From assembly GCF_030013205.1 (NCBI RefSeq), contig NZ_CP122648.1: a stretch of 64,000 nt of DNA; one strand, given 5' to 3'. This document shows, piece by piece, positions 35,187 through 35,206 of the stretch. This stretch comes from Escherichia coli. GTDB taxonomy: Bacteria; Pseudomonadota; Gammaproteobacteria; Enterobacterales; Enterobacteriaceae. The position numbers were made by a program, and so were the translations under genes. How positions within the stretch are numbered: the first letter of the stretch is position 1; every line of letters starts with the position of its first letter. The notes under the pieces are model-generated. The model did no database searches. It saw nothing but the letters and a program-made list of their open reading frames with translations, and was not told where the DNA came from.

Positions 35187-35206
35187 AACTTCAAGCTCCG
35201 GCGTCA

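Follow-up and report, generated by a model that had tools for sequence, protein, structure and literature searches.

The 20-bp convergent junction at the 3' end of acpH in an Escherichia coli genome is probably the edge of an insertion into an older acpH/malZ junction

Introduction

Of the convergent excludons of E. coli K-12 MG1655, 165 recur in 50% or more of 58 RNA-seq samples of that strain, and the malZ-acpH pair is one of them (ExcludonFinder, Nucleic Acids Res 2025, PMC12288877). The locus described here shares with that excludon the same acpH 3' end, a convergent layout without a terminator and a very short spacer. It differs in that the partner of acpH is an orphan gene, the spacer is 20 rather than 4 bp, and malZ lies 1.67 kb away behind a strong hairpin; the transcript overlap is documented for the K-12 allele only (PMC12288877).

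Intrinsic and bidirectional terminators offer a second point of comparison, and the usual rule for the intrinsic type is that the U-tract begins 0-2 nt after the stem. Like these terminators, the acpH strand of our locus has a stem-loop across the stop codon that is followed by a T-run. Unlike in these terminators, interruptions break the stem, the T-run begins only 5 nt after it, the structure is not conserved and a consensus scan makes no call; the junction departs further from bidirectional terminators in having no upstream A-tract.

Finally, E. coli O157:H7 carries small strain-specific insertions relative to K-12, the “O-islands” reportedly described by Perna and colleagues in 2001. The DNA next to acpH resembles an O-island in being a low-GC, single-gene segment that is present or absent at a fixed site between core genes, its gene being ECs_0454 in O157 Sakai. 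However, the segment comes without an integrase, transposase, tRNA site or repeats.

Here, we analyze this junction in a stretch of 64,000 nucleotides of E. coli contig NZ_CP122648.1 (assembly GCF_030013205.1), referred to below as the window.

Results

The original prediction for this locus started from the convergence of acpH with an orphan open reading frame across about 20 bp, and its coordinates are exact according to the sequence, the ORF list and PGAP (Table 1). The acpH stop codon is TGA (35184-35186), and that of the 485-aa orphan ORF (35207-36664) is TAG on the reverse strand (35207-35209). Positions 34900-37000 are 100% identical to E. coli strain ETEC4079 (NZ_CP122643.1), and the PGAP annotation of this identical genome places the gene ends where the ORF list does. 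The pair has the adjacency of a convergent excludon, with acpH (+) ending at 35186 and the orphan (-) lying from 35207 across the 20-bp gap. Spacer length is constant in all six occupied genomes inspected, and the junction 61-mer was detected in 1,127 genomes, with the exact window version kept in 385 and altered in 738 of them. Ten convergent pairs are present in the window, with spacers of 16 to 202 bp; in the tightest, proC (+) and adrA (-) converge at 56953-56968 with 16 bp between their stop codons. Given this range elsewhere in the window, a gap of 20 bp is unremarkable. The tight acpH/orphan junction is thus real but ordinary, its crowding inherited from the older acpH/malZ site. An exact 8-mer, GGCGTCAC, is found both at the end of acpH (35165-35172) and in the spacer (35200-35207), 35 bp apart and with 11 of 13 matches when extended; by our estimate about 0.1 such repeats are expected per 120 bp, which is within chance.

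Table 1. Features of the acpH-malZ interval, in window coordinates
Feature	Position	Strand	Basis
acpH (ACP phosphodiesterase) CDS	34605..35186	+	ORF list, PGAP annotation of NZ_CP122643.1, junction comparison
Interrupted stem-loop, weakly terminator-like, acpH only	35171..35204	+	Fold, -11.7 kcal/mol; not in consensus scan
Inserted/replaced segment, 1,671 bp in place of 10 bp, TTATAAAACG, of the empty allele	35181..36851	.	K-12 alignment, composition profile
20-bp spacer, AACTTCAAGCTCCGGCGTCA, with convergent stop codons on either side	35187..35206	.	Sequence read
Orphan gene, 485 aa, hypothetical protein, ECs_0454 in O157 Sakai	35207..36664	-	ORF list, PGAP, protein searches
T6 run, 5 nt past the stem (CACTA between)	35210..35215	+	Sequence; loosened terminator scan
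12-bp in-frame tandem repeat, ~6 copies, unit CGCAATTTTTTC, Lys/Glu/Ala-rich	35753..35834	-	Within orphan gene
Strong nested hairpin between the malZ stop codon, 33 nt away, and the orphan start codon	36771..36819	-	Fold and z-scores
malZ (maltodextrin glucosidase), ancestral convergent partner of acpH	36852..38669	-	ORF list, K-12 comparison, PGAP

Comparison across complete genomes shows that about 1,126 of 5,426 E. coli carry the same low-GC segment of 1,671 bp (35181-36851), whereas in the other 4,296 (79%) acpH and malZ converge directly without it. At this empty site the stop codons are 4 bp apart (GCG TTA TAA aacg TTA GTT in K-12), and folding of the K-12 junction gave no structure (z of -0.05 and +0.73). 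The same 4-bp junction is found in E. albertii, in Escherichia sp. MOD1-EC7003 and E1V33 and in the E. coli species representative, and the acpH termini of E. albertii and two cryptic Escherichia lineages are K-12-like (TTR TAA). The presence of the 4-bp empty junction in E. albertii and cryptic Escherichia implies that the empty state is ancestral for the genus and the orphan segment derived. In the composition profile, GC drops across 35200-36850, to 0.28-0.44 in the segment versus 0.52-0.56 in the flanks, so the segment combines the presence/absence polymorphism and the deviant base composition of a genomic island. The claim in the original prediction that the orphan DNA is an insertion between acpH and malZ therefore holds on presence/absence, GC and the K-12 alignment. 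We consider it probable that one ancient insertion of 1.67 kb, carrying the orphan gene, a promoter-proximal region and a strong hairpin, entered a pre-existing 4-bp acpH/malZ convergent junction and that the 20-bp gap is its left edge. Convergence without a terminator is, judging from these comparisons, the ancestral state of the site.

The insert is present in O157:H7, O145:H28, IAI39, ST648 and Shigella dysenteriae. As these are deep-branching lineages, one may ask if the orphan gene was instead ancestral at the site and the 4-bp junction of the K-12 type arose by secondary deletion, and the K-12 spacer does have a match in the insert, whose right end contains an ATAAAAC motif. We regard this history as very unlikely, since the 4-bp junction occurs together with TTR TAA termini in E. 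albertii and the two cryptic lineages, the CTCTGA terminus expected after a deletion is seen in none of the 4,296 empty genomes, the orphan has a lower dS than the neighboring acpH, and the low GC points to foreign DNA.

The endpoints of the insertion could be mapped against K-12, where identity ends with GCG at 35180 and restarts at TTAGTTCA (36852), which bears out the sharp, mappable boundary that had been predicted. The alignment to K-12 proposed with that prediction defines both endpoints (35180/35181 and 36851/36852) but reveals no convincing target duplication, only short motifs compatible with chance. Because AAAC is common to both alleles, the left endpoint may lie anywhere from 35181 to 35189. 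Both junctions are identical across all occupied genomes inspected, and this identity favors a single event. That the insertion landed exactly at the 3' end of acpH is right insofar as the gene and the left edge of the segment meet at the extreme 3' end of acpH, but the junction is not clean, as TTA TAA has been rewritten: the last two codons of acpH are CTC TGA (35181-35186) versus TTA TAA in the empty allele, with the protein (...KAL*) unchanged. Retention of the Leu-stop by chance is unlikely (about 0.4% by our estimate). The CTC TGA terminus goes strictly with the insert: when a synthetic empty site with CTCTGA was compared with the 4,296 empty genomes, the best match was 93.8%. Together, the mapped endpoints and this insert-linked terminus offer a clean typing marker for the presence/absence polymorphism. 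We also considered an origin of the empty sites as excision scars and rejected it, as no empty genome has a CTCTGA terminus (best full-length match 93.8%).

The termini of acpH in Citrobacter, Enterobacter and Salmonella are CTC TGA or GCG CTT TGA, and the resemblance of the rewritten terminus to those of other Enterobacteriaceae suggests arrival by homologous recombination. Most simply, the segment would have been imported from a relative that already carried the orphan beside acpH. In a search for the donor, a blastn comparison of the insert with 80 enterobacterial acpH loci returned only chance matches of 14-15 nt, one genome per species in GTDB yielded no DNA or protein relative of the insert, and tblastn against phages gave no match. 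A plasmid origin was discarded, as the two “plasmid” matches were mislabeled chromosomes of 4.9 Mb. Within the segment there is no integrase or transposase gene and no tRNA, the orphan being the sole ORF and having no family match; terminal inverted repeats were not found, the only shared motifs being AAAC and ATAAAAC. The segment is therefore free of the marks of a mobile element (recombinase, inverted repeats, convincing target duplication, tRNA site). A scan of 34200-37200 with Rfam at E <= 1 detected no RNA family.

We then turn to the question of a terminator at the acpH 3' end. The consensus terminator scan flagged nothing in or across the gap at 35187-35206, and the 121-nt junction folds no better than its shuffles (z for the + and - strands, -0.93 and +0.20, respectively). 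On the acpH strand, however, a weak stem-loop covers the acpH stop codon and the spacer, its 5' arm being the end of acpH and its 3' arm inserted DNA. The stem has 12 pairs with three interruptions (ACGC/GCGU, GG/CC, GCU/AGC and UGA/UCA, with the loop AACU), and the 56-nt fold of the region has a z of -1.97, with 6 of 200 shuffles folding as well. The T6 run beyond it is likewise inserted DNA, and its opposite strand encodes the C-terminal Lys-Lys of the orphan. Between the stem end (35204) and U6 (35210-35215) lies CACUA, an offset of 5 nt, and it is this offset together with the three interruptions that makes the consensus scan reject the site. The stem-loop is also variable: G35195A, found in three of the six inspected genomes (O157:H7 and two others), breaks a G-C pair without compensation and reduces the free energy from -11.7 to -5.8 kcal/mol, so that with this uncompensated change, and with most occupied genomes differing from the window 61-mer, the structure lacks the conservation expected of a terminator. 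Unlike in a bidirectional terminator, what comes after the hairpin on the minus strand is GACGCCUGCGCC, which contains no U-run, and fold z-scores range from -0.23 to +0.20. Hence a strong or bidirectional terminator is missing from the gap, and any terminator there would be weak, variable and confined to acpH. The refolding that had been put forward as a possible refutation thus uncovered no strong bidirectional terminator (junction z of -0.93/+0.20, no minus-strand U-run); the original statement that there is no terminator hairpin is accurate for canonical and bidirectional terminators but overlooks the weak chimeric stem-loop at 35171-35204 (-11.7 kcal/mol) and its T6 on the acpH strand.

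Whether this structure works as a terminator was weighed with a loosened scan of the whole window, which accepts a 34-nt fold of -11 kcal/mol or better with T6 within 12 nt. It returned 11 sites: the acpH site, seven at known same-strand gene ends (tsx, araJ, phoA, brnQ, secF, yajQ and tig) and three intragenic. It is possible, if doubtful, that the stem-loop and T6 act as a working intrinsic terminator of acpH, in which case acpH transcripts would end within the last codons of the orphan and only read-through from the orphan into acpH would be left. The fold energy, the z of -1.97 and the passage of the loosened hairpin-plus-T6 scan speak for such a terminator, as does the fact that 7 of the 10 other matches sit at known same-strand gene ends. 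Speaking against it, the stem is interrupted three times, the T-run lies 5 nt away instead of 0-2 and the consensus scan rejects the site; the site is among the weakest of the loosened scan, about as stable as two of the three intragenic matches; and G35195A is uncompensated (-5.8 kcal/mol), while the exact 61-mer is kept in only 385 of 1,127 occupied genomes. As the loosened scan mostly picks real gene ends, acpH may terminate more cleanly than our preferred explanation, an insertion into a junction that already lacked a terminator, assumes. Further along the read-through path of acpH, the consensus scan found weak terminator-like sites at 35262-35280 and 35331-35347.

The other end of the segment carries a far more stable structure. 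The hairpin downstream of malZ folds with -30.2 kcal/mol on the - strand and -36.5 on the + strand (z of -4.05 and -5.25), and the malZ strand continues after it with AAUUUGUU. It is a single-copy sequence present only in the 1,126 occupied genomes, where it is at least 95% conserved. This hairpin is probably a malZ terminator that was brought by the insert.

The orphan gene itself has few points of contact with known sequences. As Z0501 is malZ in EDL933, the orphan is probably Z0502 in that genome. Searches for its family in Pfam, NCBIfam, PADLOC and PHROGs gave sub-threshold low-complexity matches only, and PDB sequence and profile searches with the protein returned nothing. An exhaustive HMMER search of 1.84 billion representative proteins recovered no homolog outside E. 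coli/Shigella, the matches consisting of one full-length cluster (E. coli) and fragments; a repeat-protein match (P0140) was dismissed as spurious. An AlphaFold2 model built from a 16-sequence alignment has a mean pLDDT of 42.8, too low to be of use. Every genome inspected nevertheless has an intact ORF whose length varies only in 12-bp in-frame steps, and strain differences in the copy number of the 12-bp repeat account for length variants of 461-493 aa in 4-aa steps. Annotation treats the gene as a CDS in each of the 40 genomes that were sampled evenly down the ranking. Its dN/dS is 0.47-0.89, with one pair at 1.67, and its dS is 0.02-0.15 versus 0.09-0.22 for acpH in the same genomes. The lower orphan dS fits a younger segment that spread across older acpH backgrounds, and these values suggest a young, weakly constrained gene. 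With no relatives among 1.84 billion representative proteins, yet intact in more than 1,000 genomes, the orphan is a true ORFan and more curious than the junction. In strain 1504D004, whose acpH is almost the same as that of O157, the orphan allele has a strongly divergent central segment.

Signals for expression of the orphan are mixed. A Shine-Dalgarno sequence, GGAG, lies 7 nt before the ATG, and the upstream region is at least 95% conserved, while no sigma-70 consensus promoter was found upstream at the scan threshold. A literature search with ECs0454, Z0502, yajB+malZ and the protein accessions found no publication on the gene. Silencing of AT-rich acquired DNA by H-NS is established, and H-NS silencing of the AT-rich orphan is plausible. 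If the gene is silent, for instance repressed by H-NS or decaying, nothing would read into acpH and the junction would be without transcriptional consequence. We take this possibility seriously, though we would not make it our leading one. It is consistent with the GC of 0.28-0.44, the missing consensus promoter, the weak constraint (dN/dS of 0.47-0.89 and one pair of 1.67) and the lack of literature on ECs0454 or Z0502. It sits less easily with an ORF of 485 codons at 36% GC that is intact in all genomes inspected and called as a CDS in 40 of 40 sampled, with the good Shine-Dalgarno sequence (GGAG 7 nt before the ATG) and with the upstream conservation of at least 95%.

Discussion

Our analysis indicates that the insertion gives acpH a new convergent partner, the orphan in place of malZ, and leaves the architecture as it was. 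The original prediction had presented antisense read-through at this site as a product of the insertion. In its full form, that explanation holds that the insertion newly created a junction without a terminator, at which mutual antisense read-through, absent from K-12, alters acpH expression. The 20-bp gap does lack a canonical terminator, and the insertion is real and abuts acpH. However, the empty allele is even tighter (4 bp) and also has no hairpin, overlap of malZ and acpH is already documented as an excludon in K-12 RNA-seq (PMC12288877), and the window has other convergent pairs with spacers of 16-37 bp. We therefore do not retain read-through as a product of the insertion, and a newly created junction of this kind appears unlikely. 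The crowded, terminator-poor 3' end of acpH is better seen as an inherited property of the locus, catalogued as a K-12 excludon, than as a consequence of the insertion.

Under our preferred reading, acpH would already have been a convergent partner of malZ, without a terminator between them, before the insertion arrived. In insert-bearing strains, the hairpin after malZ probably halts read-through from malZ, and acpH would face the orphan gene instead. Transcripts of the orphan would be predicted to run antisense into acpH unless stopped by Rho, the consensus scan having found no terminator-like site in acpH on that path; this antisense would matter only if the AT-rich orphan is expressed. In the other direction, acpH transcripts would meet the weak chimeric hairpin and T6 and then two weak terminator-like sites within 160 nt, and with these in the way their overlap with the orphan should be short. 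Read-through, expression of the orphan and any effect on acpH in insert-bearing strains are putative.

A bolder proposal would be that the orphan insertion rewired a conserved antisense pair, such that an imported terminator insulates acpH from maltose-induced read-through of malZ and acpH is exposed to orphan antisense in about 21% of E. coli. We consider this decidedly unlikely as it stands. To our knowledge, no enzyme other than the acpH product removes the prosthetic group of acyl carrier protein, and if the pair has indeed been rewired, regulation of acpH would be strain-dependent. Should the swap of partners alter the antisense exposure of acpH, it would provide a small natural case of an accessory gene rewiring the regulation of a core gene.

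The interval between acpH and malZ varies across Enterobacteriaceae, from a spacer of -4 (in Siccibacter turicensis the stop codons overlap by 4 bp) to unrelated DNA of more than 2.5 kb. Unrelated DNA sets the two genes 0.4 to more than 2.5 kb apart in genera such as Citrobacter, Salmonella and Enterobacter, and in Salmonella arizonae the interval contains a peroxiredoxin-like gene (L019:3292-3894). On these comparisons the interval is a recurrent variable spot in the family.

We also note an insertion of 204 bp directly upstream of the acpH ATG (34401-34604), which neither K-12 nor O157 has at this site. Within it, an ERIC/IRU repeat core at 34442-34486 matches the ERIC1R and ERIC2 primer sequences with 2 and 1 mismatches, respectively. 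The ERIC element has a median of 8 copies per E. coli genome, and copies counted as full-length, covering 80% or more of the 206-bp query, are present anywhere in the genome in 644 genomes. The insertion also creates an in-frame upstream ATG at 34551. In this strain, acpH expression is more likely to be affected by this insertion than by the 3' junction.

Other parts of the window show further features of note. A second copy of the ERIC core lies at 19225-19268, between dxs and yajO. An IS200C-family transposase gene (40332-40790) is inserted between proY and brnQ. Between yajO and pgpA, a gene at 20607-22178 encodes a 523-aa pentapeptide-repeat protein, which may resemble the EspX-type effector-like genes of O157.
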